A stretch of 63,904 nt of DNA, filler included, from Parasitella parasitica NRRL 2501 (Eukaryota > Fungi > Mucoromycota), in assembly GCA_025201805.1 (NCBI GenBank). It is 8 parts of 8 records of this genome, joined end to end, with 100 filler letters (N's around TTAATTAATTAA, not from the genome) between each part and the next. Parts side by side here need not be neighbours in the genome. Positions count along the whole stretch, not along the records: positions 59,676 to 60,708 come from MU619683.1; 7 more parts are not named here. One strand, written 5' to 3'. How positions within the stretch are numbered: position 1 is the first letter of the stretch; the number at the start of each line of letters is the position of its first letter. Positions 3,846 through 63,904 of the stretch are shown in pieces. Below the pieces are notes generated by a model. It did not search any database, had not been told where the DNA came from, and saw nothing but the letters and a program-made list of their open reading frames with translations. A program made the translations under genes and the position numbers.

Positions 3846-3955
3846 AAAAAGCGATACCGCTACCGATACCGATACCGCTACCGCTACCGCTACTAATACG
3901 TCATCATTTTCTTGAAGAGCAAAAGGCGATACCGCTACCGCTACCGCTACCGATA
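3846..3955. repeat. Inverted copy of the hexamer arrays and spacer (right arm), running into the gap
   Basis: Reverse complement of about 1835-1947, including the identical spacer CGCCTTTTGCTCTTCAAGAAAATGATGACGTATTAG. Confidence 0.95.
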
Positions 3956-4935
3956 NNNNNNNNNNNNNNNNNNNNNNNNNNNNNNNNNNNNNNNNNNNNN
4001 NNNNNNNNNNNNNNNNNNNNNNNNNNNNNNNNNNNNNNNNNNNNNNNNNNNNNNNNNNNNNNNNNNNNNNNNNNNNNNNNNNNNNNNNNNNNNNNNNNNN
4101 NNNNNNNNNNNNNNNNNNNNNNNNNNNNNNNNNNNNNNNNNNNNNNNNNNNNNNNNNNNNNNNNNNNNNNNNNNNNNNNNNNNNNNNNNNNNNNNNNNNN
4201 NNNNNNNNNNNNNNNNNNNNNNNNNNNNNNNNNNNNNNNNNNNNNNNNNNNNNNNNNNNNNNNNNNNNNNNNNNNNNNNNNNNNNNNNNNNNNNNNNNNN
4301 NNNNNNNNNNNNNNNNNNNNNNNNNNNNNNNNNNNNNNNNNNNNNNNNNNNNNNNNNNNNNNNNNNNNNNNNNNNNNNNNNNNNNNNNNNNNNNNNNNNN
4401 NNNNNNNNNNNNNNNNNNNNNNNNNNNNNNNNNNNNNNNNNNNNNNNNNNNNNNNNNNNNNNNNNNNNNNNNNNNNNNNNNNNNNNNNNNNNNNNNNNNN
4501 NNNNNNNNNNNNNNNNNNNNNNNNNNNNNNNNNNNNNNNNNNNNNNNNNNNNNNNNNNNNNNNNNNNNNNNNNNNNNNNNNNNNNNNNNNNNNNNNNNNN
4601 NNNNNNNNNNNNNNNNNNNNNNNNNNNNNNNNNNNNNNNNNNNNNNNNNNNNNNNNNNNNNNNNNNNNNNNNNNNNNNNNNNNNNNNNNNNNNNNNNNNN
4701 NNNNNNNNNNNNNNNNNNNNNNNNNNNNNNNNNNNNNNNNNNNNNNNNNNNNNNNNNNNNNNNNNNNNNNNNNNNNNNNNNNNNNNNNNNNNNNNNNNNN
4801 NNNNNNNNNNNNNNNNNNNNNNNNNNNNNNNNNNNNNNNNNNNNNNNNNNNNNNNNNNNNNNNNNNNNNNNNNNNNNNNNNNNNNNNNNNNNNNNNNNNN
4901 NNNNNNNNNNNNNNNNNNNNNNNNNNNNNNNNNNN

Positions 4936-5732
4936 TTTCGGGGTTTCCACTCTAGCTGGTGTTCCTACGGCAGATCTAGCCCAATTGTTTCTCATATTGA
5001 TATTAAATCCAGCCTCATCGATAAAAATGCAGTTTTTTGTTTTGTCTAAATCTGAGTCTTTCCATTTCATGAACAATTCATATCTTGTCTGCAAAGTTTT
5101 CTCAGAATTCCTTGCCTCAGGTTCGAAGCTAGGCTTCTTGACAGAGATGAGCATATTATTTTTCAAATGATGGTTGAGTTGAGGCTTCGAAATGATGAAG
5201 TCCATGAACTGTATAGTCAAAGATTCAATGATATCGTCAGCATAAAGCTGAGGATCTTCGTCAAGTAATTTTTGAATATACTCCTCGTGCTCGATCTTAA
5301 ACGAACTTGGTCGACCAAAATTCATTTTCGACTGCTTGTAAGGTATTTCTCCAGTCTCTACGTAACGATCCCACCATCGTTTGGCAGTACGAGGATGTAC
5401 ACCAAATGTCTTTGCATAGTAAGTTACCAGTCCCCTTTGCATGGGACTCTCAATCATTCGATCTATAAATAGTTCCCATGTTTGGTCACTATAGTTATTG
5501 TATACTGCTTGGGTGTTTTGCTTGGCAGCTTTGGGCTTTTCAGCTGTATTCTCAGTGGTTGCCTTTTCTTGGGGCTTAAGACTTAAGTAAGTCTTTTGGC
5601 TTGTTATTGTTTCCAGAACAATGTTGGGATCGGTGATATCGGTTAAGACACCCTCCATTGGTCAAGGACTTTCTCTCCTTGTTCGTTGTAAACGTTTTCT
5701 TGTTCATCTTCGTAAAAAAAGGTGTTTGTCAT
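4936..5732 (-). CDS. Tc1/IS630-family transposase, N-terminal half (right arm, runs into the gap)
   Basis: HTH region (AKTFGVHPRTAKRWW) and CIFIDEAGFN. 4936-5002 is the exact reverse complement of 1071-1137. The probable ATG at 5732 is one base out of frame with the ORF starting at 5658. Confidence 0.88.
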
Positions 5733-25385: not shown

Positions 25386-26365
25386 CTTGATTATAAAAAG
25401 TAATATTTATGAAGAAAGAATCTTTTTTCTATTATGAAAATTTTGATCTCTTTTCAATCAAAATTGCAAAGAATCTGTGACATTGCAAAAAAAAAAAAAA
25501 AAAAAAAGCATATTAGTTTAACACGAAAAGCAGCCATTGTATTTAAGCTTTTTGGTTCATGCAAGCCACACCTTAACTTTATGATTGCCATACATGCCCA
25601 ATGAGAACTTTTTACATCGTTGTTATGGTTACATCAAAACGGGGGCTATTGCTTTGATCTTACTGTAACCACGACGGCATTTTTGATATCTCAAATTTTT
25701 AGACATACTTTTTTTTCTTTTTTCATTTTGTTTTTCTTCCTCCACTTAAAGCCCGAGGATATCAATCAATTTTCAATATGAAATGCTAGCAAATTTTTGA
25801 CATGAATGAGAAAAATTTGGTTGTTTCAAATAATATAAGATATAAACTCAAATAACTTGTCTCCGTTGCCTTTGAGACTCCTTGGCATCCATATTTTTCA
25901 AATCGGAGATGGGGTTCAATATCGACTGTTAGAAAATTGTACTTACTATCATATGCAGAGATCAATAAGGTGGTAGTCTTGTCTATGCTTTTCCACCATG
26001 GATAATTTTAGTATTGATTGATAAATGTTGTAAAAGGAGAGCTAATATTGCTATTCTATCTTACTCTCTCCACATATTCCCATTGATAGCAATTTGGATG
26101 ATACTGTTGTATCAACCTAAAAGAGTAACATTATAACCCAGTCGGCTTAAGTTTTCCACTCCTTTCATTCATCCTCTATAAATCAAATCTCATGGTAGGA
26201 TTGCATAAAAATCTTATTTTTACGACTAACACAGCTTGAACCGGACCTTTAATTTTCCCCGTTTTNNNNNNNNNNNNNNNNNNNNNNNNNNNNNNNNNNN
26301 NNNNNNNNNTTAATTAATTAANNNNNNNNNNNNNNNNNNNNNNNNNNNNNNNNNNNNNNNNNNNN

Positions 26366-27894
26366 CTTTCCAATGCACTTTATACAAGAAGTTACCAGGT
26401 GTTCCCTTGTGATCAATCACTGCTTGAATTTCAAATCTTTCATTGCAAAATTCATCAACAGACACAGGCTTTTGATTAGCAGCAGCCTTATACACAATAT
26501 GATGAGTTGGAACATCTCTACTAAGCAACGCACCAGTTCTATCCATCAAGACATAAGAACCATTAGCGGTAACATTATGAATCCGATAAGGACCTTCACA
26601 ACGTTCATCCAATTTATTTTGACGATCAACATTCTTGATCATAACCTGACTACCAATTGGATACGGTGCATCAAGTACTTTATGCTTCTTAGCAAAGTAC
26701 TTATGATCTTCGCTTTGCGTTTCTAAAATCCTTTTAGACAACGCAGGGATCAACACATCATGAACAAATTTATAACGTTCATTGATCAATTTGGTGTCAG
26801 CTTCTTCAAGACTCAGCGTTGGCTCCAGATCTGAATAATCTTCCAACATATTAGGTTGTCTATTAAATACCATAGCAAACGGACGAGATTTGTGCAATCT
26901 AGCATACTTGATATTTATACAAAAGTTGACCCAAGGAATATAACTTTCCCATTGATCACGTTTTCCTTTTAGCAACTTGATAGTTATCCCCTTCACAAGT
27001 TTCACATACGATTCAGCTACACTGTTGCCAAGAGGATTATAAGCAAGGCTCAAAAAGCGGCTTATTCCACTAATCTCCAACATTTCAGTAACAACATTTC
27101 CAAGAAACTCGGTAGTACCACGATCCATGGACAATGCTTTAGGAAAACCAAACAAAGCAAACACTTGCAATAGTTCTTTAGCGACACTAGAAGCACGTTT
27201 ATCAGGCAGCAAACATCTTTGTGCAACTGATTTTCCACATGTTTGACGCCATAGTGTCCCAACAAATGAGCACGAATAATCAGAGTGTCTCTTTGATCAG
27301 CAGGAGGAGTCATATACTCAGCAAACTTGAGTGCACGAAGAACTAATTCGTCCCGAAGAGTTTCCTTACTCTTTTTCGAATTCGACAGCACTCCATTGTT
27401 TGGCACTCTTTGACCATTTGCATGTGATATTCCCATGAATTTCACAGAGTTTTTCTTTATGCCACCCTCTTTTACAGAAAGGATATCTTTAGCTTTTCTT
27501 TTGTTCACATACATATTCTTTGTATTTTTTGCCTTTTTTCCACCATTAGCATAACTGCCCCCAACAAGATGATGAGCTTCAGCATTATCATCTTCATACA
27601 GTCGAGACAAAGCATCAGAAATACAGTTTAAAATACCAGGAATATGCACAACATCAAAGTCATACGCGAAAATCAATTCGTACCAGTTCAACATCATACT
27701 GTTAGGCGTGTCCTGAACATTAAGATAAATCAACGACTTATGGTCAACATGCAAGGTAAAACGACGCATATACAACCATCGATGAAACTTCTTAAAAGTG
27801 TACACAATAGCTAACAATTCTCGTTTAGTGGTAGAATAGTTACGTTCAGCTACAGATAACTTGCGCGACACCATACCAAGATAACGAATTTCGT
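26366..27894 (-). mobile_element. Ty3/gypsy pol fragment: RNase H, integrase (internally deleted), start of chromodomain
   Basis: AERNYSTTKRELLAIV, DHKSL, HLLGHYG, GPY motif, EIQAVIDH...YKVHWK. Bounded by gaps. Confidence 0.92.
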
Positions 27895-28099
27895 NNNNNN
27901 NNNNNNNNNNNNNNNNNNNNNNNNNNNNNNNNNNNNNNTTAATTAATTAANNNNNNNNNNNNNNNNNNNNNNNNNNNNNNNNNNNNNNNNNNNNATTTAA
28001 CCTTAGATCCGATTAGGAACGGTTGCCATGACAACTGAGTTGAAATAGTGGTAACCATGGTATTCTATGGATACAACACCTATCTCGTTAACACTTGGT

Positions 28100-29900
28100 T
28101 TCATTATCTTTTTTGATCCAACAACAATATTCCTACCCACCGTGAAAAATGGTCCCCAAGGTACTGCAACACATTAATGCACAGAAACTGAAGAAGGTTA
28201 TTCTGATGACTCCAGAGTGGACAACGCAATTTTGGTTCCCGATGCTCCTCAGGATGCGACAGTTGGACACCCCAATCTCTTACAAATACCACAAGATGCG
28301 ATTAACCGCGTGGTTATTATCAGGGAAGCTAGACAAAAGAAAGGTCTAACAATGGAAGTAAGCATGTTGTATTTGAAGGGAGACATAAGAGAAGAAGGAA
28401 CCGCAAGAGTCTATGATAATGGTTGGAAGAAGTGGACAACCTGGAGCTTAGAACATAACATTGATTACTGCGTATATGATAGTGAAAATATAGTTCGTTT
28501 CCTCATTGCTCACAAGCATTACAGCCCACAACATCTTAATACCATCAGATCTGCCATCAGCTTGGTTTTTAAACATATGCATTCAGAGAAGCCAAACATT
28601 GCTACTACAACAAGAACTCAAGACTTTTTTGCAGCAAGAAGGCGAAAACAGATCCAAATTCCAAGTTTACACCAACTGGAGACATGGGATACCAACATCC
28701 TTGTAAAGTTCATCAAGACAAAATGATACAACACAGAGAGCTTATCTACTGAAATCTTACAGTGGAAGACGATGGCTTTACTCTGTTTAGCTACAATGGC
28801 AGAACCACGATTGGACATGGGATGCTTTGCAAAGACGATATATGATTTTTTGATTGAGCACTGATGAAGTGGTTCGAGTGCCGTTTTACATTTCAGACGG
28901 GCAAAAGAAACCTAAGTTAAATCAATTACCATTGGAATATATTGAATGATGTCAACATTGTTTAGAATAACAAAATATAGCCAGAAAAATACAATTAGAA
29001 CTGAATATATTTATTTTGCTATAATTCCAAGATTGAATGCCGATTTAAACTAGTGTATGTTTTGAAGGTATTTATAGTTATTTGACAGTGCCGCAGCAAT
29101 AGGACCATGATCTAGGATGAGGGATAATTGGGTACACCTTGAACCAATCCCTAGGAGCTTGGTGGATAAGAGTTTCCGAGTTACCAGTAAGACAAGAGCA
29201 TAGATACGTATAAAGGATAGAATGTTGTTCCTGGTAGCTTTGATGGAAGAACATTCATCAGGATTAAACACCGACCTCAGGAACCAAATGTCATAGGATA
29301 TTACCACTTTTTACTGGGATAAAGATTCGCCATTCAATGTTACCACTTATGTCTCTTTGCCATGTCTAAATAAAGTCATTCCATTCTACTACGCATTTCT
29401 ACTCATGCTCGCTTTATGATGTATTATACAGAGTATAATACATTACCGCTAAGATTTGATCTGTATCCTAAACAAACATCTGCCCTGCCAATACTTTGCT
29501 GAAATTTGTGGAAAGATCGTCGCCGTTGAGAGAACAGTTGGATGAAGACCATACATTGTTCTTAAGATATATAAATATAATACTACCAAGGTATCTTCAA
29601 TTCGACCATCCACATTATCCAACTGGCTCATGGAAGTAATGCAACAAGCGGGCGTGGACAAAGCGTACAAAGCACACTCTATCCGGGCAGCCGCAAGCAC
29701 AAAGGCGGTCGAAAGGGGACACAAGATCAACTCCGTCAAAAAAAAACATTTCTTTTCATTACAAACCGACTGCCGCAAGTTCTACAAGTACACAAATCAC
29801 CAATTCAATTTTTACAACTGAGAGCCGTATCACATTAGGAGCTGAAGCAGAGGAAACTGAGATTGTTGTAGGTACGACCAACAATCAAGATGTTTCCGAA
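28100..29900 (+). mobile_element. Degenerate DIRS-like tyrosine-recombinase retrotransposon
   Basis: VILMTPEWTTQFWFPML, TARVYDNGWKKW and YKAHSIRAAASTKAVERG. Contains stops and is split by a solo LTR. Confidence 0.8.
28959..29474. mobile_element. Solo LTR (516 bp) with AACAT target-site duplication
   Basis: TGTTTAGAATA...TATCCTAAACA termini, AACAT at 28954-28958 and 29475-29479, second copy at 60809-61065. Confidence 0.9.
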
Positions 29901-31062: not shown

Positions 31063-34021
31063 TGATAGTGTTTTATGTGAAGGAATGGAGAAGTGCGCCA
31101 AATTTTTATATGATTAGGCGTCAAGCTTTTCCAATATTACTGACCAAATTTTGTATTTACATTTGACCAAATCTACTTCACAATGCTAACCAAATTTTTT
31201 TTATCCATATTTTCACATTGTTGAGTACCGCTTCTGATGGTCCGCAAGTCCATCTTTACGTGCAACAAATAAAACTCATTTAAAAAAAAAAAAAAAAATC
31301 ATATCCAGGCACGGTTCAAAGTACTAAAAGAATTATAGTGGCAGAGATTGCGTTTCACCCAAGCAAATGTATGCGAAGGCGCAAAAAAAAAAAAAAAAAA
31401 AAATCAGGATGTTATTTCATTAAATTCACCTGGTGAATTCCATATCAGCCTCTAAAGACATCAGTTTTCAATTAGGCTTGCCTTCGCAATGTCTGTAAAG
31501 AAGGCTCATGGACAAACTTTGCAAAAGGTGGGTTTATACCTTCCAAAGCCTGTATTTTCTCAAGGCCAAACGAATTTCATGCAATTGCACGAGAAATGTC
31601 GTCTTTACTGAAGTCTTTCTTGAACGGCAGTACGATTACAATTACACACTATCTCCTCTTATACCGTAAAAATGCCATAAGTTTTCATTTATTTCGGAGA
31701 CTAGCAGCCTCGTAGATCGAGATGAACCCCACCTTAGCGTAGCGAAAGTGCAAAAAAACCACCAGAGTGGGCTGGGTGACCAGCTCGTTTTGAATAAAAA
31801 AAGTGTAATTCTTTGGCAATTAACTCTTGACATAACATGTTGGTTTTTTAACCAGAGTTCGGTGATCGTTGAGAGCCCATACATTTTAATATATTATATG
31901 ATTGAGTGTATCAACTTTAGCTTTGTCTACAAAAAAATAAGTAACCTGTCTATTTCTAGTGTCAATCACCGTCAACAAAGCTTAGACTGACAAGATGGCC
32001 AGTGGCTCCAAGTCAAAACTCAAAACGAAAATATGGTGCCTGAATTAACTACTAGACCGAGACTGACAGGAAGGCCAGCTGGCCCGTTCACCTACGACGT
32101 TGGCACATCTATCGATTGACCGGTTTACCGTGTAAATTAAAAAAAAAAACTCAATCTCTTATTTTACAAAGGTGAAGCTTAGAGAAAAGAGAAAAAAAAA
32201 TTCGTTCAATTTTCTATCCGTTGAATGTATAAATAGCCAAATTTGTCCATAATCTCGTCGGAACCAGTGGTATTTACGCATATCGAGGTGTGATCTTGAT
32301 AAAAAAAAAATGCATTCAAGTATCAGATGAAAAACGTTAGTTTTGTGTCAAGAATGTTTTGAAACAAAATAACACAGTTTATAGACGGGATATGTTTCTG
32401 CTCAGGCTCTCTTTTGCCATTATACAATCGTCACTCCAATCCTCTGTGCTAATCTTTGGTATTGTTCTCTGGCAATTTTTCTCTGTCTCCAAATAAACAC
32501 TGCAACTGATATCACTGCAACTGAAGCGTTCAAGCCCTGTTATGACAAAGGAATGGATTTAAAATGATAATCAGAATGATTTAGAAATACTTACTTCAAA
32601 TTTTATAAATCTTGCCCTTTCGACGCTCCTCACTCGAGGACAAGCTCGGAATGATGGCAGCGAGATAGCGTCGTCTTCATAAAAAGCCGTCTGATTCTTT
32701 TTGTCTGCCAATTCTGGGTCATCCCATTCGCAACGAACAGGTTCTTTACTACCAAACTCGACGCAATATGGTTGTGTTTTCTGCGCAACGAAAATGATTA
32801 GTTGATACTTTTATGTATAAGGCAATGCTACCTTTTCTAACGGATCGCATAATTGACATTCTCCAATTGAATAGCAAGAATAGGTTGATTTATCGACAGT
32901 TTCATGAGAATGAGTATAATCTCCCAAATGACGAGAGCCTGAATTTGCATCTTGAGCAACACCAAATGGAGGGGTTCTTCGAATATGGGTTTCAGCAGCT
33001 GTGATTGCAAAAATGTAAAAGCTGATATCAAATGTTGGTATGTTTACTGGTGCATAAAATCTTGCTTTACCTTAGTAGCGAAATGTATCTCATTACAAAT
33101 AATTATCAATTACAGCAAATTAATGCAACATCTAATCATCTGAAAGCTTTAGTCGCTAAAATTCAACATCTGTGAGTAGATTGTGGATTTATTGCATATC
33201 GTAAAAAAAAAAAAAAAAGGTAAGAGCATTGCTTAATAGAGGGCAAACTGAGTTCTTATGTGACCTTTTTCAAACTACATTGACCCCTCCCACAACAAGT
33301 TTACTTGCTTCTTGTTTAGACTTAATCCGTCAGAAATGCAAAAAAAGTCGTTGTGGGGCTCCTACAAAGCGCTACCACCGAAAACGAGAATTACATTGGG
33401 CCTCGGTACAACGTGGAATAATCTCAAAATGTGAATCTGTCTAATATGGTATAATAGGTGGAATGCTGTTTGCTACAGCAGGCATGTATTTAGCAGATTT
33501 AATCGAGGAACAAAAGCCAGCATCAGAGCTCGAGAAGCAGCAACTAGAAATCATGTCTCCTATCGTTATTGTAGACCATCAATCCAAGAAAAAATGATAA
33601 TACCGCAATGTAAACCACTAAATTACCAATAAAAGATTATTCTTAGAGAACACTGTCGAATTCTGAATAATTCACATGTCAAACTTTGTTTGCTGCTACA
33701 GTATTTCCATTGGCATGCCAGAAAAAATCAGTTCCACCCAGACATAGCGTGATCAAACATACACAAGTCCATCCTAATCTACTGAAAATACAAAGCCAAG
33801 TAAATCTAGTTAAGCTGGTCAATATGTATTAACGCACAAGACATTCGAGCGTATCGCATCTCTTTTGCACTGCTCAGGGTCAATGTGTTTCAACCTCGTT
33901 TCTTGCAAAAGATATTTGTTTGATGAACGAATTAAAAGTATTTATTAGTAATAGTCAAAAGAGTATTAATTAGATTATTAGAAGCAGTAGTAAAAGATCA
34001 AGTAGATATAAGTTGGGTTAT

Positions 34022-34549
34022 TTAAAAGAAACCTTGCTTGTAAGCAAGACCGCCAATAGCCAAACCAAGAGCGTAGATGATAATGGCATAGAGGCCACGA
34101 GCATAACGGTTATCGATGATTAGTTCAAGGACAAACCAGACGACGGCAACAGCAACAATGAACCAAGTGATAATCATAACAGCACGAGTAGAAGCACGGG
34201 CAAATGTATTCATGGAAAGTAAACAGACAAGAGAGAAGAGAGCGTCCTTGACAACTTGGTAGCCTCTTTCCAAGCGAGGAGCAAATGTACCTTGCATAAC
34301 AGGAGCCTTCAAATAGAACTTGCTCTTGTGAGTCGCTTCAGCTGCAGCCGTATCCGTTGCAGTAGCAACTTCTGGTTCAGTCGTTGTAGAAGAAACAGTT
34401 TGCCCAACAAAGAATGATCTGACTACCCAGATCAAGCCCCAAATGACCCATAATGTCATGAATGCAATCCAAGTAACACGGACATGCCAGTCTTGAACGA
34501 ATGCAGTTTCGGTAGCGTAAACAGAGTCAGTAGCAGCAGAGTCAGACAT
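34022..34549 (-). CDS. Uncharacterised multi-TM membrane protein (paralog A)
   Basis: 175-aa ORF with hydrophobic helices and a close paralog on the opposite strand. Confidence 0.85.
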   Translation of the reverse strand: MSDSAATDSVYATETAFVQDWHVRVTWIAFMTLWVIWGLIWVVRSFFVGQTVSSTTTEPEVATATDTAAAEATHKSKFYLKAPVMQGTFAPRLERGYQVVKDALFSLVCLLSMNTFARASTRAVMIITWFIVAVAVVWFVLELIIDNRYARGLYAIIIYALGLAIGGLAYKQGFF

Positions 34550-35581: not shown

Positions 35582-36109
35582 ATGTCTGCTAATAATACCA
35601 TTGCTGCTGCTACCGGAATCAAAAACTTCATCTACGCCTCTGAAACTGAATTTGTTCAAGACTGGCATGTCCGTGTTACTTGGATTGCATTCATGACATT
35701 ATGGGTCATTTGGGGCTTGATATGGGTAGTCAGGTCATTCTTTGTCTCTTCTAGTACGACTGAATCTGAAGTCACTGCTGCTTCTACCGATCCAGAAGTC
35801 TCTCACAAGAAATCCTATATCAAAGCGCCTACTATCAATGGCTCGTTTGCTCCTCGTTTGGAAAGAGGATACCAAGTCGTAAAGGATGCTCTTTTCTCTC
35901 TTCTTTGTTTACTTTCCATGAATACATTTGCCCGTGCTTCTACTTATGCTGTCATGATTCTTGCCTGGTTTTTTGTTGCATTTGCCGTATTCTGGTTTGG
36001 CGTTGAGCTTGTCGTTGATAACCGCTACGTTCGTGTTCTTTACACTGTCATTTTCTACGCCCTCGGCTTGGCAATTGGCGGTCTTGCATACAAGCAAGGT
36101 TTCTATTAA
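35582..36109 (+). CDS. Uncharacterised multi-TM membrane protein (paralog B)
   Basis: Shares FVQDWHVRVTWIAFMTLWVIWGLIWVVRSFF and other blocks with paralog A. Confidence 0.85.
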   Translation: MSANNTIAAATGIKNFIYASETEFVQDWHVRVTWIAFMTLWVIWGLIWVVRSFFVSSSTTESEVTAASTDPEVSHKKSYIKAPTINGSFAPRLERGYQVVKDALFSLLCLLSMNTFARASTYAVMILAWFFVAFAVFWFGVELVVDNRYVRVLYTVIFYALGLAIGGLAYKQGFY

Positions 36110-36488
36110 ACTGCAAATTATTTAATTTTCTTGATATCACCACTACTACTTTTTCACTTTTTTCAAACTAATTTAATTGCGTTCTTACAAATGACTTGAT
36201 GTAAACTAATAAACTACGATTATGTGTACACATAATAATTTTCTAATTATATCATTTGAATCCTACATACTAGATTAAATTATTTCATTAAAGCAATTGA
36301 TGATATAGTATTTGCCATAGCTTCACCTATATAGAAACGAATTCTGCTTTATAGTATAATATTACGATATGGAATATACTACCAGATTAGAATCTAGAAT
36401 GCACTACATCCATTATCACACAATAACAAAGTAATCGCAGTGTCATAAGGGGAATTGTCAGTTTATTCAGTTTTTTGTGAATATATTA

Positions 36489-41867: not shown

Positions 41868-44570
41868 TTAGAACAGTGCTAGAATTTGGCTAAAGAATCC
41901 AGAGCTGGATTCGCTTGCTGGATCTCCATGCGAGTTTAATAATGCGCTTTTGGTTGATGATGAATACGCTTGACTGTTTGATGGTGCAGCCCTTCTCGAG
42001 AAGCCAGCAAATGAGAAGCCAGGTAGCACAAAGCCTTGACTGGATTCAGACTGTGATTCAGACGACACTGGGTAATTGCTCGGTAATGCAGCCATCATAA
42101 GTTTGGTAGCCGATTTAGTGATTACTGGAGCAGAGCCCGAGATGAACTGGTATGTGCCATCTGCATTTACTTGGACTACATTACCGATAGACAAGATATA
42201 AACTCCAGGGCCATAGAAACCAGGAATATTAAATGGGAAACTATATGTCACGCCATTAAGAACAGTATTCAAGCCTATAGGCGAACTGGTAGCAGACGCT
42301 GGTTTTGTTGTTGTTGTGGGAGCCCCAGGGCCACCTTGGATCCACTGCAAAATACCTGCTGCATTGATGTATACAGTATTGCCAGGGCTCAAAGTGTAGG
42401 TTCCAGGGCCGGTAAAGGTACTAACGCCAAAGCTGCCAGGAAGACTTAAGGGAGGGAAAGAAAGAGTGGGAAGTCGAAGCGACCCAGACCTAATGCCCAA
42501 GAAGCCGCTTCCGAGCACGTAAGAATAGGAGCCACTTTCACCCATTGAAACCACTGTGTTGGCATTGAGAGTATAAAGGCCAGGGCCTGTGTAAGTAGCA
42601 ATTCTACCACCGGTAGGGAGATCCAGTGCAGGGAAGGTAATAGTTGGCAGACTAACTTGAGTTGGATATGTTACCGCTGGTGCAGTAGTTGACTGAGAAG
42701 CCAAAGACTGCGGGCCACCTAAAATCCATCGAATTCCACCGTTTGCATCAATTGAGATCTGATTTCCAGGAGATATCATGTAGACGCCGGGACCAGTAAA
42801 CTGAGGAACTTGTACTCCGCCGGCAAGCGTTAGTGTTGGGAACGCAAATTGAGGAACATTGAGATTGCCGTTGTTTATGTTGAAGAATCCACTGCCGGAA
42901 ATGTAAGTGTAAGATCCCTCAGAGTTGACCGAGATGACTGAAGATGGGCCAACTGTGTAAGTACCAGCACCAGTGAAGCCAGGGACTGCGACACCGCCCG
43001 GAAGGTTGACACTAGGGAAGGTAATCACAGGCAAGGCGATTGATGGGAATGTTACAGGATAGATTACGGGCTGCGTTGAACTTGTGCTTGCAGATGTGGA
43101 GCTTGCAGGAGGTCCACCCGAGATGAATGTATACGTGCCATCATTGTTGACTTGAACGACGTTTCCAAGACTTAAAACGTAGATACCGGGCCCGTAGAAT
43201 CCAGGAATGTTGAAGGGGAATTTAAAGGTGACACCGCCTATAACCGTAGATCCAGGAGGACCAGTTTGGACGGGAGCTGTGGCAGTAGGAATCGTGAATC
43301 CAGGCAAAGTAAAGCCGCCCCCCGGAAGAGATTGGGGTCCACCTTGGATCCACGTAACGCCGCCAGATACGCCAATCGATACAACATTTCCAGGAGACAC
43401 AGTGTATACACCAGGGCCGCTGAAGCCAGGAATAGGGATACCGCCAGCAAGAGTGATGGTAGGCAATGCCAAAGGAGGAAGCGTCAGGCTACCACCAGTA
43501 CTTCCATTGGGGCCGCTGTTGCCCAGATACGTGTAGACGCCATTAGCTCCTACTGAAAGAGAAACACCGGGGGCGACTGTATATATACCAGAGCCAGTGT
43601 ATGCTCCAATTGCCAAGCCATTGCCAATGCTGATTGTGGGCAAGTTTAATGTTGGTAATGTTATGCTTGGGAACGTGATTCCAGCAGGTGCTGGTGTAGA
43701 GCTTGCGCTTGGCCAAGCGAATGTTGGGAACGTAAACCCGCCTCCAGCTGCCGTTGAAGGCCCTCCTTCAATCCATTTCACATCACCAAAGAATCCAATC
43801 GAGACAACATTGCCAGGTGAGTACGTGTAGATTCCAGGCCCACTATAGTTGGGCAATTTTATGCCACCCGCAAGCGTCAGCGTCGGCAACGATACACCTG
43901 GAAGAGACACAGATCCAGCAACATTACCACTACCACCAGTCAAGAATGTATAAGCTCCATTGGCATTTACAGAGACTATGTTTCCTGGGCTGACAGTATA
44001 CGTTCCAGGACCATTGTATCCGCTAATAGTAAAGCCACCACCAAGGTTCAACGATGGCAGATTCAGCGTTGGTAACGAAACGCTAGGCCACGTAATGCTT
44101 GGAAGAGAAATTGTAGGAAAGGTGAAGCCGCCACCAGAAGCAGTGGAAGGACCGCCCTGAATCCACTTGACATCTCCAAAGATTCCAATTGATACAACAT
44201 TACCCGGAGAATATGTATATACGCCAGGGCCGCTATAGTTTGGTAGCGTAATGCCACCAGCAAGAGTCAATGTCGGTAGAGATACACCAGGTAAGGAAAT
44301 AGACCCTGCTACGTTTCCACTGCCTCCAGTGAGGAAAGAAAACGCACCATTAGCACCAACGGATACCACGTTTCCAGGGCTAACTGTGTAGGTTCCAGGT
44401 CCACTAAAGCCTCCAATGCTAAAGCCTCCACCAAGGTTGAGAGTAGGTAAGTTCAGAGTAGGAAGAGTAATGCTAGGCCATGTGAAGGATGGTAATGAAA
44501 TTGTAGGGAAAGTAAATCCGCCTCCAGATGCTGATTGAGGACCTCCTTGAAGCCATGTAATACCTCCACC
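41868..44570 (-). CDS. Gly/Pro/Thr/Ser-rich tandem-module protein, 5' end lost in the gap
   Basis: Open frame from the gap edge with at least 12 G(P)GxYT-SPGNVVS-(W/F)IxGG modules. Confidence 0.85.
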   Translation of the reverse strand, partial: GGGITWLQGGPQSASGGGFTFPTISLPSFTWPSITLPTLNLPTLNLGGGFSIGGFSGPGTYTVSPGNVVSVGANGAFSFLTGGSGNVAGSISLPGVSLPTLTLAGGITLPNYSGPGVYTYSPGNVVSIGIFGDVKWIQGGPSTASGGGFTFPTISLPSITWPSVSLPTLNLPSLNLGGGFTISGYNGPGTYTVSPGNIVSVNANGAYTFLTGGSGNVAGSVSLPGVSLPTLTLAGGIKLPNYSGPGIYTYSPGNVVSIGFFGDVKWIEGGPSTAAGGGFTFPTFAWPSASSTPAPAGITFPSITLPTLNLPTISIGNGLAIGAYTGSGIYTVAPGVSLSVGANGVYTYLGNSGPNGSTGGSLTLPPLALPTITLAGGIPIPGFSGPGVYTVSPGNVVSIGVSGGVTWIQGGPQSLPGGGFTLPGFTIPTATAPVQTGPPGSTVIGGVTFKFPFNIPGFYGPGIYVLSLGNVVQVNNDGTYTFISGGPPASSTSASTSSTQPVIYPVTFPSIALPVITFPSVNLPGGVAVPGFTGAGTYTVGPSSVISVNSEGSYTYISGSGFFNINNGNLNVPQFAFPTLTLAGGVQVPQFTGPGVYMISPGNQISIDANGGIRWILGGPQSLASQSTTAPAVTYPTQVSLPTITFPALDLPTGGRIATYTGPGLYTLNANTVVSMGESGSYSYVLGSGFLGIRSGSLRLPTLSFPPLSLPGSFGVSTFTGPGTYTLSPGNTVYINAAGILQWIQGGPGAPTTTTKPASATSSPIGLNTVLNGVTYSFPFNIPGFYGPGVYILSIGNVVQVNADGTYQFISGSAPVITKSATKLMMAALPSNYPVSSESQSESSQGFVLPGFSFAGFSRRAAPSNSQAYSSSTKSALLNSHGDPASESSSGFFSQILALF

Positions 44571-46815: not shown

Positions 46816-47227
46816 TGTCAAGGGACACAGACGATTTGGCGGGTTTTGGAAACAGCAGCGACATGGCCGCTATACACCTACGCTGATAACAAATGAACAT
46901 AATACGTCGCAAACGTGTGTTTTCTGCTTCCACAAGCTTCCTCATCCTGTGGCTGCTCTCAAAGGCAAAATGCAGCGAACAGCCGGTTCATTTCTTTGCT
47001 TGAATTCAGAATGCCCCAATGCCTTCAAGACAATGTGCCGCGACCAAGTCTCAGCACTTGCAATTGGTCTTGCTGGTCTTGGCTGCCTTTTGTTTGGAGT
47101 AACTTTCCCCTGCTTCGACCCAAACCCCACCACTGCCAAGCGCAAACAATTCAACAATTTAGCCCTATCTTTTTTGTACAGAAAACAGATACTGGGCTCA
47201 CCTTTCGATGGAGGCAATACTCTTTGA
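46816..47227 (+). CDS. Fanzor/TnpB-like nuclease, C-terminal part (5' lost in the gap)
   Basis: Open frame VKGHRRFGG...ITNEHNTSQTCVFC...CLNSEC...CRDQVSALAI, matching RuvC-II Glu, Zn finger and RuvC-III Asp. Confidence 0.75.
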
Positions 47228-57186: not shown

Positions 57187-59675
57187 ATCTTTTCTAATTG
57201 TACATAAGCTAGACTTAATTTACCCCTATTTTAAATAATAATAATAATAGTACAATGTCATCTTAACAAAGTTTAATTTATTTACCCCATTCAAATTGAA
57301 AATAAACCCTATACATGTGCTTAGCACAAATATGCAGCATTGTTTAAGTTAAAGTTGATATTTTTGTTTGCAAAGGTATTTTAAAATCCGTTACAGTTAT
57401 AAGTGACCAAATTATATAATCATAAGAAAACGGAATGATTTGCAACGAATATACGAGGGTGTATATATTTAGTGGTATGGATCACAAGTTCTGTTCGTCC
57501 GATTTTTCCATCATTGCCTTGGTTTCAATGTCGATCCAAAACTATTGTTGACTTTAACTGTATCACTGGTGGCGATGAACTTTTACTACATTGAGGTAAG
57601 GGATGAGCTGCGGAAGTTCGTCCAGCGATAAAGGGAGGCGGATGAAACCTAGTTCTGATACCACCAAGACATCACTAGGATGGAATTGCACATTGGTTTC
57701 TAAAAAAAAAAAAAAAAAGTTTGTATGGACTGAATTATTTTAATGATTGTAAACCTTCTCGCTGCCATGACTTGAAACATGTGCTTTCTTTTGTATTCGG
57801 CTGTACCTGGTTTAAAGGAAGTGCACAGCTGATGTAAATTAATATTAGTTTTCTTATAGTTTCTTGCGTGTTTGATTGGCTTTATTTCAAAATAGCCGAT
57901 AGTTTTGTGATTGTCTTCAGCACAACCATCTGGCTGGTTTTTGATGAATCTCGATATGACAGTCAGAAAATAATTTCTTGAAACACGTTTGCTAAGAATC
58001 TACAAAGGTCAAACTCTTTAATTTCTTTTTTATTGAAGCTTGGAACGGTAATGTCTACCATAGATTTTGTACATTGTAATAATCTAATCACAACCTTATC
58101 CGTGCTGTCATTAATCCAATGCCAATATTTGGATTTTGGCGTTTAATATGGCTAACAAGCGACAGTTAATATTGTCGGTGATTGTAATGAGTGTCATCAT
58201 GACGTCCATTGGAAAATTATGATCAACTTGGTTGAAGCCAAAAGAATCATACATGGTCGTCAACTTTCTTGGGATCGACTAAACCTGGACCAAATAATGT
58301 TCGCCAGGAGTCTTTCCCCACTTCAGTCTCATCGAGGATTAGGCTGACACAAACGCCAGCGAATCCGTTCGCCTACGACGTTGGCACATCCATCGATTGA
58401 GGAAATAAAAAATAAAAACTTAGCTTTTACCTCACGAACATCGTCTGCACAATTGAACCTTAAAAAAAGGAGAAAGAATGGAAGTGAGAAAAAGTTGCTT
58501 CATTGAATATTCAGCTTTTAGAGGCATGTCCCTTTGATAAATAATACAGTTTAATGACTTTTTCACAAAATGAGATACTCGAATTACGTGGATTTAAACA
58601 GGTAGAATTATTAGATGAAATTCGCTAAATGATGTGTCAATTTCTTAACCGGAAATCAAATTCAAGAAAACTCAATGTTGAACACAATCCAGGAACATAT
58701 ATCAATAGATAAAATTCCATATAAATATAGCTCTGTATGGCATGTTCATAGACTATAGATACAGTTTATCGTTTTGTATTCTTATAAAGTAGTAGAGGCT
58801 ACGTACGTCGTACATAACATACTTATACATTCACGAATTACGATATTTATTGTTGGTAATACCTTAACAAATAAATAAGCTACATAAATTGTAATTAAGC
58901 CTCATAGTGGTTCCAGCCTTATTCAAAAGTTAGATCAAGATGATTGCGGGATACCGGTGTTGAGACATCTTGCATACATCTTCTTTTTGATGTAAAATAG
59001 AACAGGTTCCTGGAAATGCTGTGATCTAGCAATATTTCGTCCGCACATTTTGTCAAACATTAGATACTATGTGGATAAGGATGGAGTAAGGTATAGTTTC
59101 GTATAAATAGAGATCGTATCTTATAGTATCGATGAAAGTAGTAGTCAGTTTCATATGTTCTGATTTAATTCAGAAATCCTTTATCACTTTAAATGACACT
59201 CAATTTTTACAAATTACTAGTTGATTTATCAAAAAAAAAAGTCAATAGGAATTAACCCGGTAAAGATCCGTTTATTATATTCAAAATAGAGGTTTTATAT
59301 ACTTTCTATGGAATGAGAGGAGCGATGTGAGGATAAAGGTCTTAGTGATGCAATCCGGGAGATGGGATAGATAGTATTTATCCCAAATGTCATGTTTAAT
59401 GTGTCAATTGCCCAACCGGAAGTCAAACTCAAGTAAACACAATCCTGAACACAATTCAGGAACATATCTGTTGGGTTAAAAAAGATAATAAAAAACCAAA
59501 ATGTTAACGAGATACGAAAACTTAAAGATACTTTATTTAAGATCGAAATTGCATCTGCTATTTATACTTTTTACANNNNNNNNNNNNNNNNNNNNNNNNN
59601 NNNNNNNNNNNNNNNNNNNTTAATTAATTAANNNNNNNNNNNNNNNNNNNNNNNNNNNNNNNNNNNNNNNNNNNN

Positions 59676-59866
59676 ATGTCGTAGAAATGCAGCAACAACA
59701 GCAGCAGAATAGAAACAACTATCATATAGGAAACTATAATAGAGGTAGAGCGCAACAGCAACATCCTGCACTACGACTATGCTATAATTGCAACTCACCA
59801 GATCACTTGGCCTTCAATTGCACTCATCCGCCCCAACAACATCAGGGAAAAGGCCGAGAGCAATAG
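59676..59866 (+). CDS. LTR-retrotransposon Gag C-terminus with CCHC zinc knuckle
   Basis: The frame from 59678 reads ...RLCYNCNSPDHLAFNCTHPPQQHQGKGREQ* (CX2CX4HX4C). Confidence 0.85.
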
Positions 59867-59915
59867 AAGACAGGAGAAATTCTATTGCTCGAAGTAAGTA
59901 TACTAACAATTCTCC
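59845..59915 (+). promoter_or_regulatory. -1 programmed ribosomal frameshift signal (G GGA AAA plus predicted pseudoknot)
   Basis: Heptamer at 59845-59851 in gag phase, 6-nt spacer, 11-bp stem GAGCAATAGAA (59858-68) / TTCTATTGCTC (59880-90), loop GGAGAA (59873-78) complementary to TTCTCC (59910-15). Confidence 0.8.
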
Positions 59916-60708
59916 AAATGAAATAGTGAACGTATACAAGAGTAAAGGAATTGAAGTTTATGGTCTAACATCTGACAACATTAGTAAAGAATATAATAAA
60001 GTAGTAGTTGCTTTAGATGTTGCATATAAAAATAACACACCCATAATATTAATCGCTACAAATGTGGTTGAGACAGGTGTCACGCTAAATATAGACAACA
60101 TTTTTGACACTAGTATGAAAATGAAGCCGATTATCAATTATGCAGATAAAACAATATTGACTACTACTATACCAATCAGCGAGCAAGAATCAGTGCAACG
60201 TAGGGGACGGGTTGGTAGAACGCGTGCAGGGAATTATGTCTTTAATCCAGTGAATTATACCAATTACGAAAGTCTGGATCAAATAGAAAGATTTGCAGCT
60301 TACGTACGTTGTCTCAAATGCAAATTAATAGTGGATGACTACTTTTATGAAGAAGCGCAGTTGATTGGTAAGATTACAGATATTAAAATCAAGAACTTGT
60401 TAGCAAGCACACTACATCCTCTTATGACTTTGGGCATGCTAGATGAGCAAGGGGCGTTTTATTACAATTATTTTGAGTTTAGACAATACATGACTGAAAT
60501 GGATGTAGAAAGCAAAGTGTTCAATAAAAGTTTGTTGCCTAGGGGAGCTATATCGAACTTTGAGAAAATGAACATAACAATAAAGGATGGTAACATATCA
60601 AGGGATGTGTTGATTAATGTTCCTCTCTCAGATTACATGATGGACCCAAACGTGTTATATGCTTTGTTTGAGAAAACTATTAGTCCAGAACATGTCAAGA
60701 AAATTCAA
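59916..60708 (+). CDS. Potyvirus-like CI (SF2 RNA helicase) C-terminal half, endogenous viral sequence in the -1 frame of gag
   Basis: ILIATNVVETGVTLNID (motif V), QRRGRVGRTRAG (motif VI), then a segment resembling the potyviral CI C-terminal domain. No stop before the gap. Confidence 0.8.
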
Positions 60709-60808
60709 NNNNNNNNNNNNNNNNNNNNNNNNNNNNNNNNNNNNNNNNNNNNTTAATTAATTAANNNNNNNNNNNNNNNNNNNNNNNNNNNNNNNNNNNN
60801 NNNNNNNN

Positions 60809-61065
60809 ATCCTTTATACGTATCTATGCTCTTGTCTTACTGGTAACTCGGAAACTCTTATCCACCAAGCTCCTAGGGATTGGTTCAAGGTGTACCCAAT
60901 TATCCCTCATCCTAGATCATGGTCCTATTGCTGCGGCACTGTCAAATAACTATAAATACCTTCAAAACATACACTAGTTTAAATCTTCATTCAATCTTGG
61001 AATAGCAAAATAAATATATTCAGTTCTAATTGTATTTTTCTGGCTATATTTTGTTATTCTAAACA
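60809..61065 (-). mobile_element. Partial second copy of the 28959-29474 LTR (inverted)
   Basis: Near-identical reverse complement of 28959-29218, ending in ...TTCTAAACA followed by AACAT. Confidence 0.9.
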
Positions 61066-62143
61066 AACATGAGAGTTGAGTTTTTTGATAATCTTAAACG
61101 GGCCGATTCTTCTATGATCAAGTTTCTTGGTTGGTCTCATGGATGTGATGTTCTTTGTGTTGATGTAAACTTCATTACCAATGTCAAGACCTTGGGTTTG
61201 TCTTTTACTTTTGTTGTAGTACAGGGCTTACGATTTTTAAGCGCGAGAGATGTTGATTTTACTTTTCTGCTGAACATCTTTTAACTTGTTTAAAAACTCA
61301 TCTGACGCTGGAGCGCATTCGCTATCCCCCTTCTTGATATTTATGTCCGCTTTGGGATGATATCCATAATTGCTGAAGAAAGGTGAGTATTTTGTGCTGG
61401 ATTGACATTGGTTGGTGTAACTAAATTCAGCCATAGGTAGAAGGTGAGACCAGTCAGTCTGTTGATAGTTGCAGTACATTCGAAGATACTGCTCTAAAAT
61501 AGAATTGGTTCTTTCTGTTTGGCCGTCAGTTTCTGGTCTGGAAGCAGTTGACATGTTTGCCTGAATATTTGTAAACTCTTGAGAAGAAGCTGTTTCCAAA
61601 ATTTGGATGTGAATAGTGCGCCTCTATCCGACACATTTGAAGTTGGTAATAAGCCATGCAGTTTGAAGATATTATGGATGAATATGGTTGCCAATTCTTT
61701 TGCCGACATATTTTCGTTACAAAGGACAAAATGGGCCATTTTGGCCAATCTGTCAACTACGACAAATATGCTAAATCGAAACCTTGATTTTGGTAATTTG
61801 ACAATAAAGTCCATGCTAATTGGTTCCCAAGGTCTGTTTGGAACTTGGAGAGGCATGAGAGGGCCTTGTGGGGCTTGCCTTGATGGTTTACCACGAATGC
61901 ATGTCTAACAGTTGGCTACATCATAGCGGTTTACAAATTTTGTCATACCTTTCCACCAGTAATTCCTTGAGAGAAGTTCAGCTGTCTTAAAACGGCCAAA
62001 ATGACCTGAAGTAATTTTATCATGATGCATTTTCCTCAATTTCAGTTTGATTTCGTTACTGTCAGGTACATAAATCAATTAATTTTTTAGCAGTAGTAGT
62101 CCAAAATCTTCATCGATAGAGTAATTTCTAAATCTGTTAATGG
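61066..62143 (-). mobile_element. Degenerate Ty3/gypsy integrase region
   Basis: PWEPISMDFIVKLP, VVVDRLAKMAHF, SDRG, PETDGQTERTN and a GPF motif, with frameshifts. Confidence 0.9.
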
Positions 62144-62275
62144 TGTTGAGATCTGCAAGATCGAAATAAGAAAAGTATAATATAAAACGTTGAATTAACG
62201 AGATACTAAAACTTGAGATTACTTTATTAAAGATTCAACTTTGCATCTGCTATTTATGCTTTTTACAACAACATA
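62144..62275. repeat. LTR-like repeat shared with 59469-59575
   Basis: Both begin TGTTG and share TTAACGAGATAC...ACTTTATT...TTGCATCTGCTATTTAT.CTTTTTAC. Far ends not defined. Confidence 0.55.
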
Positions 62276-63904
62276 AATTTTTGGTGACTTAGTTAAAATA
62301 CTAGTCGATACTAATCGATCAGAATAATTTGCAAGCAACATCATATCCTTAACAGCAGGGTACGATGTAATATTATACTACAAGGTTATTGATCTTTGAT
62401 CTGACAGTATACCTTATTGTTTGCCAATCATACAGATCTGTGTTACAGATAACCTTCCTGATTTGAAACAAAAAAGGCTTTATTCTCCTGTTTCGACAAG
62501 TAATAACAACACATCATTGGACAATCTCCAATCTTTAATTGAAGTATACTATCATGATCTCCTAACCTACATTATGGCAGATCACTCACACTTGTATCTT
62601 ATCCTCCCATCAGTCCACTTAGATTCTACACTAGTATATAAACCGTCATTTTTCCAATAAACGAGATCTTTGTTGTGCCAGTGTCAAAGGGCCCAGCGTA
62701 ATGTTATGTAAATATGATTTGTATAAAGTAATAAAGACTNNNNNNNNNNNNNNNNNNNNNNNNNNNNNNNNNNNNNNNNNNNNTTAATTAATTAANNNNN
62801 NNNNNNNNNNNNNNNNNNNNNNNNNNNNNNNNNNNNNNNCATGGTTATTACTGACGTTAGTTGATTCATGACAATTACCCGATTTGAAATTGAAGCAGCT
62901 GCTGGGGTATTTGCTATATACAAGAAATGTGCATCAGTTAAATGAATTTATTGACGATAATAACAAATAACCACCTACATTAACTGTAAAAAGAGACGAT
63001 ACACTAGATCATATAAAATACTCGAAAAAGAAGCAAGGAGGCAGCATCTTGAAAAAAAGTAGCAAGGTTTAGCTTCATAACATTTAGAATCCAGGGCAAA
63101 AATGAGCAACAAACCTCTCATATTATTGTATATGTTCAGATACTGGACACAAAAATAAACCTGTACCATGCCTAAATAGTAGAAGAGATCTAGTTTTAGT
63201 GTATTATTAATAAAGCAAAAGAAGCAAGCCAAAAAGTATGGAATACTACTTTGACATTTACACCCAAACGACGTAATGCAAAAAAGTGATTCATACAAAG
63301 TATCATCTCTAACTATTGCCTATATTCAGCAGTAAAATATTCAGTTATTTAGTTGCTACAAACAATTTAATGCACATAGCAATACCATGCTCTCGTATGA
63401 AAGATTAAACTGAGTAGAGCCTCTATATATTATTGACAAAAGGATGATTAATAGTTTGTTAAAATAAACTCGAATACATACCATGATGACAGCAATACGC
63501 AAAATATGTTGGGTATGATTTCTTTACACTAAGCTATACTGCAAGTTGTTCCTTGATGAAAGAGAAGAAACTGCAATTTTTTATGATGAAACTGCAGATA
63601 CGTGAAGATGTTATTACTCTGTATAATGTACTTATATTTGGCACAAATGTGCTAATATTGTGTGTTTTTTAAGTTAAAATACCAGTTCATAAAGTTTTAA
63701 AATTAGTAAGAACAAAAGAAAAAGACCAAAGAGAAGCTAACAAAGAAGCTAAAATATGCATTCGGTTATCACAATATGCAATGTTTTGGGCTAACCATGC
63801 AGGAAGAAACCAATGGAAAAACACCGCTACAAGAGGTCATCTCAACAATTGAAAGCAACCATGTACAAACAAAATATATACTTTATTCAAGTATATTGCT
63901 ACTG

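Follow-up and report, generated by a model that had tools for sequence, protein, structure and literature searches.

In a contig from the genome of the fungus Parasitella parasitica NRRL 2501 (assembly GCA_025201805.1), the tail of a retrotransposon gag gene and its predicted −1 frameshift signal run straight into the rear half of a helicase gene that appears to come from a potyvirus-like RNA virus. The junction between the two is genuinely genomic rather than an artefact of assembly. We give a probability of about two in three to the reading that an LTR retrotransposon captured the viral sequence, accidentally and recently, through a template switch of its reverse transcriptase. The analysis follows up an original prediction made from the DNA alone, and the coordinates of the features concerned are collected in Table 1. 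Throughout, the window is the whole stretch of DNA that was analyzed, 63,904 nt in length.

Table 1. Features of the gag-helicase contig and its immediate flanks, in order of position along the window
Feature	Position	Strand	Basis or remark
LTR-like repeat end	59469..59575	−	Opposite sense to gag; context only; LTR reading inferred
3′ end of gag-type ORF: Q/N-rich linker, zinc knuckle, stop TAG	59678..59866	+	ORF reading; 5′ part in gap
CCHC zinc knuckle (PF00098)	59777..59827	+	Residues 34-50, E 2.5e-6
Slippery heptamer G GGA AAA	59845..59851	+	In phase with gag codons
Predicted H-type pseudoknot	59858..59915	+	Stem 1 59858-68/59880-90 (11 bp), stem 2 59873-78/59910-15 (6 bp)
Inferred retrotransposon/virus junction	59905..59920	+	Alignment to a 13-relative profile starts at ORF residue 44 (nt 59917); motif IV unmatched
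Second RecA domain, from past motif IV, and CI-type C-terminal domain of a poty-like SF2 helicase	59917..60708	+	264 codons, open into gap
Helicase motif V region ATNVVETGVT	60055..60084	+	Sequence
Helicase motif VI QRRGRVGR	60196..60219	+	Sequence
C-terminal domain common to Potyliviridae-like and helicase-only proteins, not DEAH-side or flavivirus sets	60250..60708	+	Group profiles
Placeholder gap	60709..60808	.	3,191 nt of further sequence follow 60708 in sequencing-run contigs

The contig and its gag tail

The host DNA at 59676-60708 is a complete contig of 1,033 nt, flanked on both sides by placeholder gaps of 100 nt. Its surroundings are nested retroelement remains, with integrase fragments at 61240-61904 and high-copy repeats, and one host gene of the 64-kb window matches an Atlas cluster of 91 members that come mostly from Mucoromycota (score 0.95).

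The gag tail (59678-59866) terminates in QGKGREQ*, and its zinc knuckle scores 27.8 bits on zf-CCHC against a Pfam cutoff of 20.8. Stem 1 of the predicted pseudoknot begins 6 nt 3′ of the slippery heptamer. The 86-nt fold that holds this stem has a z of −2.3, with 4 of 200 shuffles equally good, and the segment with stem 1 has the lowest energy among the 33 60-nt segments that were folded. The pseudoknot as a whole is predicted from geometry and stem 2 from complementarity only, the loop GGAGAA being complementary to TTCTCC at 59910-59915, a pairing that about 1% of random sequences allow; an Rfam search returned 0 matches. Knuckle, slippery heptamer, and pseudoknot together form the layout of a gag-pol −1 frameshift signal. 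All three parts had been called in the original prediction, down to the phasing of the heptamer, and all three were recovered here, the pseudoknot still as a prediction. Neither LTRs nor a primer-binding site nor a capsid domain was found within the contig, both flanks of which are gaps, and four sequencing runs yielded, at 85% identity, no parent element that pairs this gag tail with a normal pol. A Gag CCHC knuckle followed by a −1 frameshift signal (predicted, at 59678-59915) is the arrangement of Ty3/gypsy elements, which in full also comprise a capsid domain, pol in the order PR-RT-RH-IN, LTRs, PBS, PPT, and a target-site duplication, and from which the gag tail likely derives; because a word-index protein search gave no gag homolog, we hold this assignment to be likely at most. 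The heptamer G_GGA_AAC, which is related to G_GGA_AAA, is described as among the shiftiest, and a pseudoknot is described in the Ty3/gypsy-derived PEG10 (PMC5009743).

Several other features of the window were recorded. The minus-strand integrase at 61240-62273 is broken and interrupted near 62135 by an LTR-like high-copy repeat, of which 59469-59575 is a second end (81% alike), a pattern of nested insertions. A 69-nt direct repeat (58632-58700 and 59399-59467, 86% alike) stops just short of this LTR-like end, and a flank resembling it recurs near 28081-28134, which hints at a preferred target site. A 261-nt inverted copy of a high-copy repeat links 60809-61066 to 28958-29218 at 98% identity. 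Ty3/gypsy RNase H and integrase remains, along with a DDE_3 transposase piece with inverted repeats, lie at 26313-27946 (minus strand), 988-1929, and 3846-5002. Elsewhere, 34021-34519 and 35633-36110 form an inverted paralog pair (79% alike) for a Mucoromycota-restricted hypothetical membrane protein; a 900-codon G/S/T-rich ORF with internal repeats and without a Pfam or NCBIfam family (41871-44570, minus strand) perhaps encodes a surface protein; and an ORF piece at 46817-47224 (plus strand), without a Pfam, NCBIfam, or PDB match, contains a motif that may be TnpB/Fanzor-like.

A half helicase in the −1 frame

Viral homology begins at 59917, 2 nt past the end of stem 2 and exactly where pol should begin, as had been proposed. 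From there to 60708 the −1 frame contains 0 stops, whereas the other five frames contain 12-32 (chance 1.5e-10), so the earlier estimate of about 260 stop-free codons was close to the 264 found. The frame scores 28.5 bits on Helicase_C against a cutoff of 23.5, and it carries the sequences ATNVVETGVT and QRRGRVGR, which we take to be motifs V and VI. A profile of 13 relatives matches only past motif IV, and relatives carry their Walker A about 190 residues upstream of where the match starts; Walker A, Walker B, and motifs Ia-IV, which a functional SF2 helicase needs, are absent from the piece, in agreement with the original prediction for Walker A/B. The first RecA domain is therefore missing, and it follows from SF2 anatomy that the product would be incapable of ATPase activity.

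Neither Poty_PP (0 Pfam matches at E ≤ 1) nor HA2, which together with OB follows the core in cellular DEAH/HrpA/HrpB helicases (0 Pfam matches), was found in the helicase frame. An AlphaFold model of the frame (pLDDT 80.8) had potyvirid CI as its best folds in BFVD, across the full length and with TM 0.60-0.72 in the top 15, versus TM ≤0.55 for NS3 or DEAH structures among the matches listed from the PDB. The piece accordingly resembles the CI helicase of Potyviridae in its SF2 motifs V and VI and, as far as the model goes, in a CI-like fold.

Affinity of the viral donor

A search of the helicase frame against 1.84 billion protein representatives gave 103 matches, 11 of them at E ≤ 1e-10 with 26-31% identity, and 7 of these 11 are helicase-C4 protease-RdRp polyproteins. 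Two matched clusters bear the names Switchgrass poty-like virus 1 and Plasmopara viticola lesion associated poty-like virus 1, both of which are placed within Potyliviridae (PMC13580087). The nearest relatives, with 31% identity at best, are fungus- or oomycete-associated Potyliviridae-like polyproteins and helicase-only proteins, where the groups are labeled here from Pfam and the tree, and "Potyliviridae-like" is named after the two named clusters. The best match, P0004, belongs to the helicase-only set, several members of which sit on contigs of 2.5-3.3 kb and which are possibly vivivirus or jivivirus segments. This set comprises P0004, P0009, P0011, P0015, P0017, P0021, P0024, P0025, P0027-P0029, and others, nine of which form a clade (98/96). 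By tree path, the protein closest to the query is P0005, a poty-like polyprotein (3,461 aa, on a 10.6-kb contig) that has about 520 residues past the RdRp without a Pfam match at 1e-5. The first DEAH-side protein ranks 29th among the 103 matches, and best matches to cellular DEAH helicases, which had been named as grounds for abandoning the prediction, did not occur. A word-index search found no close relative among proteins of 147-471 aa and one DEAH-side protein at 472-2,000 aa, ESM Atlas and NCBIfam gave only generic Helicase_C clusters or HrpA/HrpB-type matches, and close-relative scans of viral, metagenome, and prokaryote contigs returned 0 matches.

The 153 residues past motif VI score highest on the Potyliviridae-like profile (39.9 bits; 9 of 9 rows; shuffle maximum 5.0) and next on the helicase-only profile (35.4 bits; 14 of 20 rows usable), against 5.2 bits on the Potyviridae profile (18 of 18 rows; shuffle maximum 5.3) and 2.6 bits on the DEAH-side profile (28 of 33 rows; shuffle maximum 8.0), with no score on the flavi-like profile (8 of 10 rows); across the five profiles, shuffle maxima were 3.9-8.0. 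The query has both a CI-like helicase without Poty_PP, which is a Potyliviridae trait (PMC13580087), and the C-terminal region of that group. Further marks of the group are its RdRp phylogeny, a C4 protease, tandem papain-like leaders, and a filamentous capsid. From the C-terminal domain and the modeled fold, a viral rather than cellular origin is firm.

Placement within the viruses is looser. A quick tree, which left out 4 of the 103 matches, put the query on the viral side (SH-aLRT 99). A careful tree of 38 rows put it outside the Potyviridae clade (97/87) and also outside the Potyliviridae-like clade of nine (100/99), which it adjoins together with P0005 at 88/72. AU tests reject none of three alternative placements (DEAH, p 0.42; Potyviridae, 0.22; helicase-only, 0.38). 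The original prediction of a potyvirus-type helicase thus stands for Helicase_C, motifs V/VI, and the CI-like fold, but not for the family itself: Poty_PP is unmatched and the Potyviridae score of the C-terminal residues is no better than shuffles. Similarly, the donor was viral, as predicted, but is placed outside Potyviridae proper and closest to Potyliviridae-like or helicase-only proteins, even if the tree does not reject other placements. To judge from these comparisons, the donor was likely an undescribed potyvirus-like RNA virus of a deep, unnamed, Patatavirales-like lineage.

The junction in sequencing runs

A CCHC knuckle is missing from the coding strand at all 11 of the closest viral loci, so the gag-helicase arrangement is not the viruses' own layout. 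Profile scans gave 160 loci, none of which matches the 1,033-nt contig by blastn, and no related chimera turned up in viral, metagenome, or prokaryote contigs. Six runs from five studies contain 92-100% of the sampled words of the contig, although three of the six may be sources of this DNA, leaving three studies, and the runs are only guessed to be DNA. In all four runs examined, from four studies, the entire 1,033 nt falls within a single contig, free of indels and with 1-2 differences; the four matching contigs are all near-identical to the stretch and possibly its source. With contig depth as a rough guide to copy number, the sequence is about single-copy in three of these runs and about fourfold in one: its depth is 40.8 in run X4 versus 38.8 for a neighboring unique contig (~1x) and 125.6 in run X3 versus 30.4 (~4.1x). 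Given one contig across the junction in 4/4 runs at genome-like depth, the claim of a genomic junction is upheld, and the other anticipated failures, a lack of reads across the junction and a contig foreign to this genome, did not materialize. The sequence thus has the marks of a non-retroviral EVE, namely, homology to an RNA-virus gene without a DNA stage and a place in host DNA (the runs being guessed DNA) joined to non-viral sequence.

Ten other runs contain next to none of the words of the contig, and two of these share sample labels with containing runs. Run X7, with the same sample label as X3, contains next to none of them, and in X9, one of the 10, matches to the neighboring contig are <95% alike, so that we read no presence/absence polymorphism into these runs. 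Among isolates, 2 of 1,033 sites differ, both non-synonymously and hence with no sign of selection on the integrated copy, which appears young. The run contigs, of 4,274 or 5,035 nt, extend 3,191 nt past 60708 in 4/4 runs and 50 or 811 nt upstream, that of X3 reaching 761 nt further upstream than those of X4-X6. They rule out 60809-62739 as the continuation of the contig; either no less than 3.2 kb is therefore concealed in the gap, or the scaffolds are wrongly ordered.

A contig of 2,229 nt, present in all four runs (X3-X6), matches 60655-60708 at 49 of 54 nt. Of the 30 nt preceding its match, 19 are shared, as are 8 of the 10 residues, and 5 of 7 changed codons are silent. On this evidence from sequence, the contig holds a real, diverged paralog of the viral helicase tail, which may stem from another capture, of a related virus, or represent a sibling element that has diverged. 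It runs 2,004 nt beyond the end of the 1,033-nt contig and starts 171 nt before its match; with only these 171 nt in front, the gag link is seen for the gag-helicase contig alone. An apparent untrimmed copy, on a 7,295-nt contig that has two short matches, was dismissed as probable chance: one of the matches consists entirely of CAG/CAA repeat, the expected number of chance 20-mers is about 0.17, and only 11 of the following 30 letters agree.

A proposed capture by template switching and its rivals

In the reading we prefer, the reverse transcriptase of the element would have copied co-packaged viral RNA and then returned to the element's own RNA where the pseudoknot ends on its 3′ side, a site that could plausibly cause a pause or break and may have set the junction, after which the hybrid cDNA would have integrated into the fungal genome. 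The correct frame after the junction would be a one-in-three event. If the copy is transcribed, the predicted outcome is Gag from most ribosomes and, from a minority, Gag fused to an ATPase-dead half helicase. A dominant-negative or small-RNA role is conceivable. The captured copy may still be copied in trans by sibling elements, and the excess depth in X3 would fit such mobilization or a local amplification. Against an accident, the −1-frame landing directly past the signal could reflect selection, and a paralog with mostly silent differences together with the X3 depth fits a mobile family equally well. Such a family would combine Gag with a frameshift-controlled piece of viral polyprotein, in which the half helicase is followed by pol or by viral protease and RdRp, and would be retained as useful to the element or the host. 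It would account for an in-frame junction no more than about 5 nt from where the pseudoknot ends, for the paralogous contig in every run examined, and for the fourfold depth, and the 3,191 nt past 60708 would fit pol or, by distances in relatives, a protease and most or all of an RdRp. We nevertheless regard it as unlikely: the paralog contig begins too close to its match to display a gag link, its silent divergence can arise in a free virus, the two isolate differences give no sign of selection on the integrated copy, and the contigs scanned hold no related chimera. Taken further, the −1 frame would stay open through the 3.2 kb past 60708 with viral protease and RdRp, and the element would make Gag and a frameshifted Gag-replicase and multiply in the manner of an LTR element (with some four copies in one isolate and a diverged sibling in 4/4 runs), keeping an RNA-virus replicase in a fungal genome; we rate this mobile hybrid as quite improbable.

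The capture could also have taken two steps, with viral cDNA entering a resident LTR element through DNA repair or a LINE enzyme, or with a longer capture later trimmed by deletion of helicase motifs I-IV. The nested retroelement remains around the contig and a viral part that begins mid-domain speak for this course, but a random insertion would not be expected to share the strand and frame of gag and to have its junction at the edge of the structure, and the one supposed untrimmed copy is probably chance, so that we give it long odds. A chimeric assembly, contaminating viral RNA, or the decayed remnant of a cellular DEAH helicase would suit a short contig between placeholder gaps, runs only guessed to be DNA, the generic or HrpA/HrpB-type matches in ESM Atlas and NCBIfam, and the AU test that does not reject a DEAH outgroup grouping. 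These explanations are largely refuted and now hardly credible, in that single contigs from four studies span the junction at genome-like depth and the C-terminal part scores far higher as Potyliviridae-like than as DEAH-side, where it stays below the shuffle maximum.

Known systems and significance

Most known captures of non-retroviral RNA by retrotransposons come from animals, and their junctions are usually decayed; Geuking 2009 is cited in the literature on copy-choice capture. The present junction appears young and is in frame where a predicted gag-pol frameshift signal ends, which opens the capture mechanism and a fusion product to direct tests. A close likeness is eBxnv-1 of Bursaphelenchus xylophilus, in which a plus-strand RNA virus gene (nodavirus RdRp) sits inside a Bel/Pao LTR element and which is young and near-invariant among carriers (PMC5177903). 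That element, as described there, is without gag and single-copy, whereas here gag and the predicted frameshift signal are kept and lead in frame to the viral gene, the host is a fungus, and there is a paralog. Aedes EVEs adjoining Ty3/gypsy and Bel/Pao elements likewise share the polarity of the LTR elements, but their described role is piRNA production, and the available part of that source mentions no gag-frameshift fusion ("gag" has 0 occurrences) (10.1101/127498). Same-strand capture by LTR elements through copy choice, or template switching, is proposed for both the Aedes EVEs and eBxnv-1 (10.1101/127498; PMC5177903). Viral helicases within retroelement reading frames are described from insects, in LINEs and Ty1/Copia fusions (PMC5563155; PMC6338049). 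Those are SF1 helicases with all motifs, including Walker A/B, and long conserved; ours is SF2, without motifs I-IV, and looks young.

On the viral side, Potyliviridae are the nearest named group, with a CI-like helicase without Poty_PP, an association with fungi and oomycetes, and EVEs of their own (10.64898/2026.08.03.742603; PMC13580087). The query differs in falling outside their 100/99 clade at no more than about 30% identity and in its Mucoromycota host; "Mucor" has 0 occurrences in the main texts of the two sources. The Potyliviridae EVEs in Tolypocladium and other ascomycetes were found by RdRp, with no retroelement fusion described in the parts of these sources that were available. 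The vivivirus VP5 or SF2-helicase-only segments (PMC12282112) are a further likeness in that the helicase-only set, of 700-1,100 aa, scores almost as well, but equating this set with VP5 is our suggestion, and the tree weakly prefers the Potyliviridae side (88/72). That poty-like viruses infect these fungi, as originally proposed, gains DNA evidence from a Mucoromycota host, but poty-like viruses of fungi and oomycetes are already an established family with EVEs in six fungal species, mostly Tolypocladium (10.64898/2026.08.03.742603, the supplements of which may list Mucoromycota), and only the Mucorales host would be new. EVEs of other viruses are known from Mucoromycota, as is a potyvirus-like sequence from Rhizophagus (PMC7482067). 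In the literature searched, mostly without subscription papers, neither an SF2 poty-like helicase placed under a gag frameshift nor a Mucorales poty-like EVE was found described. What sets this EVE apart, then, is its clean in-frame junction with the retrotransposon, together with an unnamed viral lineage and a likely new host group.

As far as its sequence can tell, the element likely records poty-like viruses infecting Mucoromycota-type fungi, and it provides DNA evidence for infection of a Mucoromycota fungus by a deep, unnamed, Patatavirales-like lineage. This bears on whether potyvirids arose in fungi, for which the evidence in 10.64898/2026.08.03.742603 and PMC13580087, as far as these sources were available, comes from ascomycete, rust, and oomycete samples. 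If the 3.2 kb past 60708 were to hold an intact protease and RdRp, the element would be a hybrid of retrotransposon and RNA virus.
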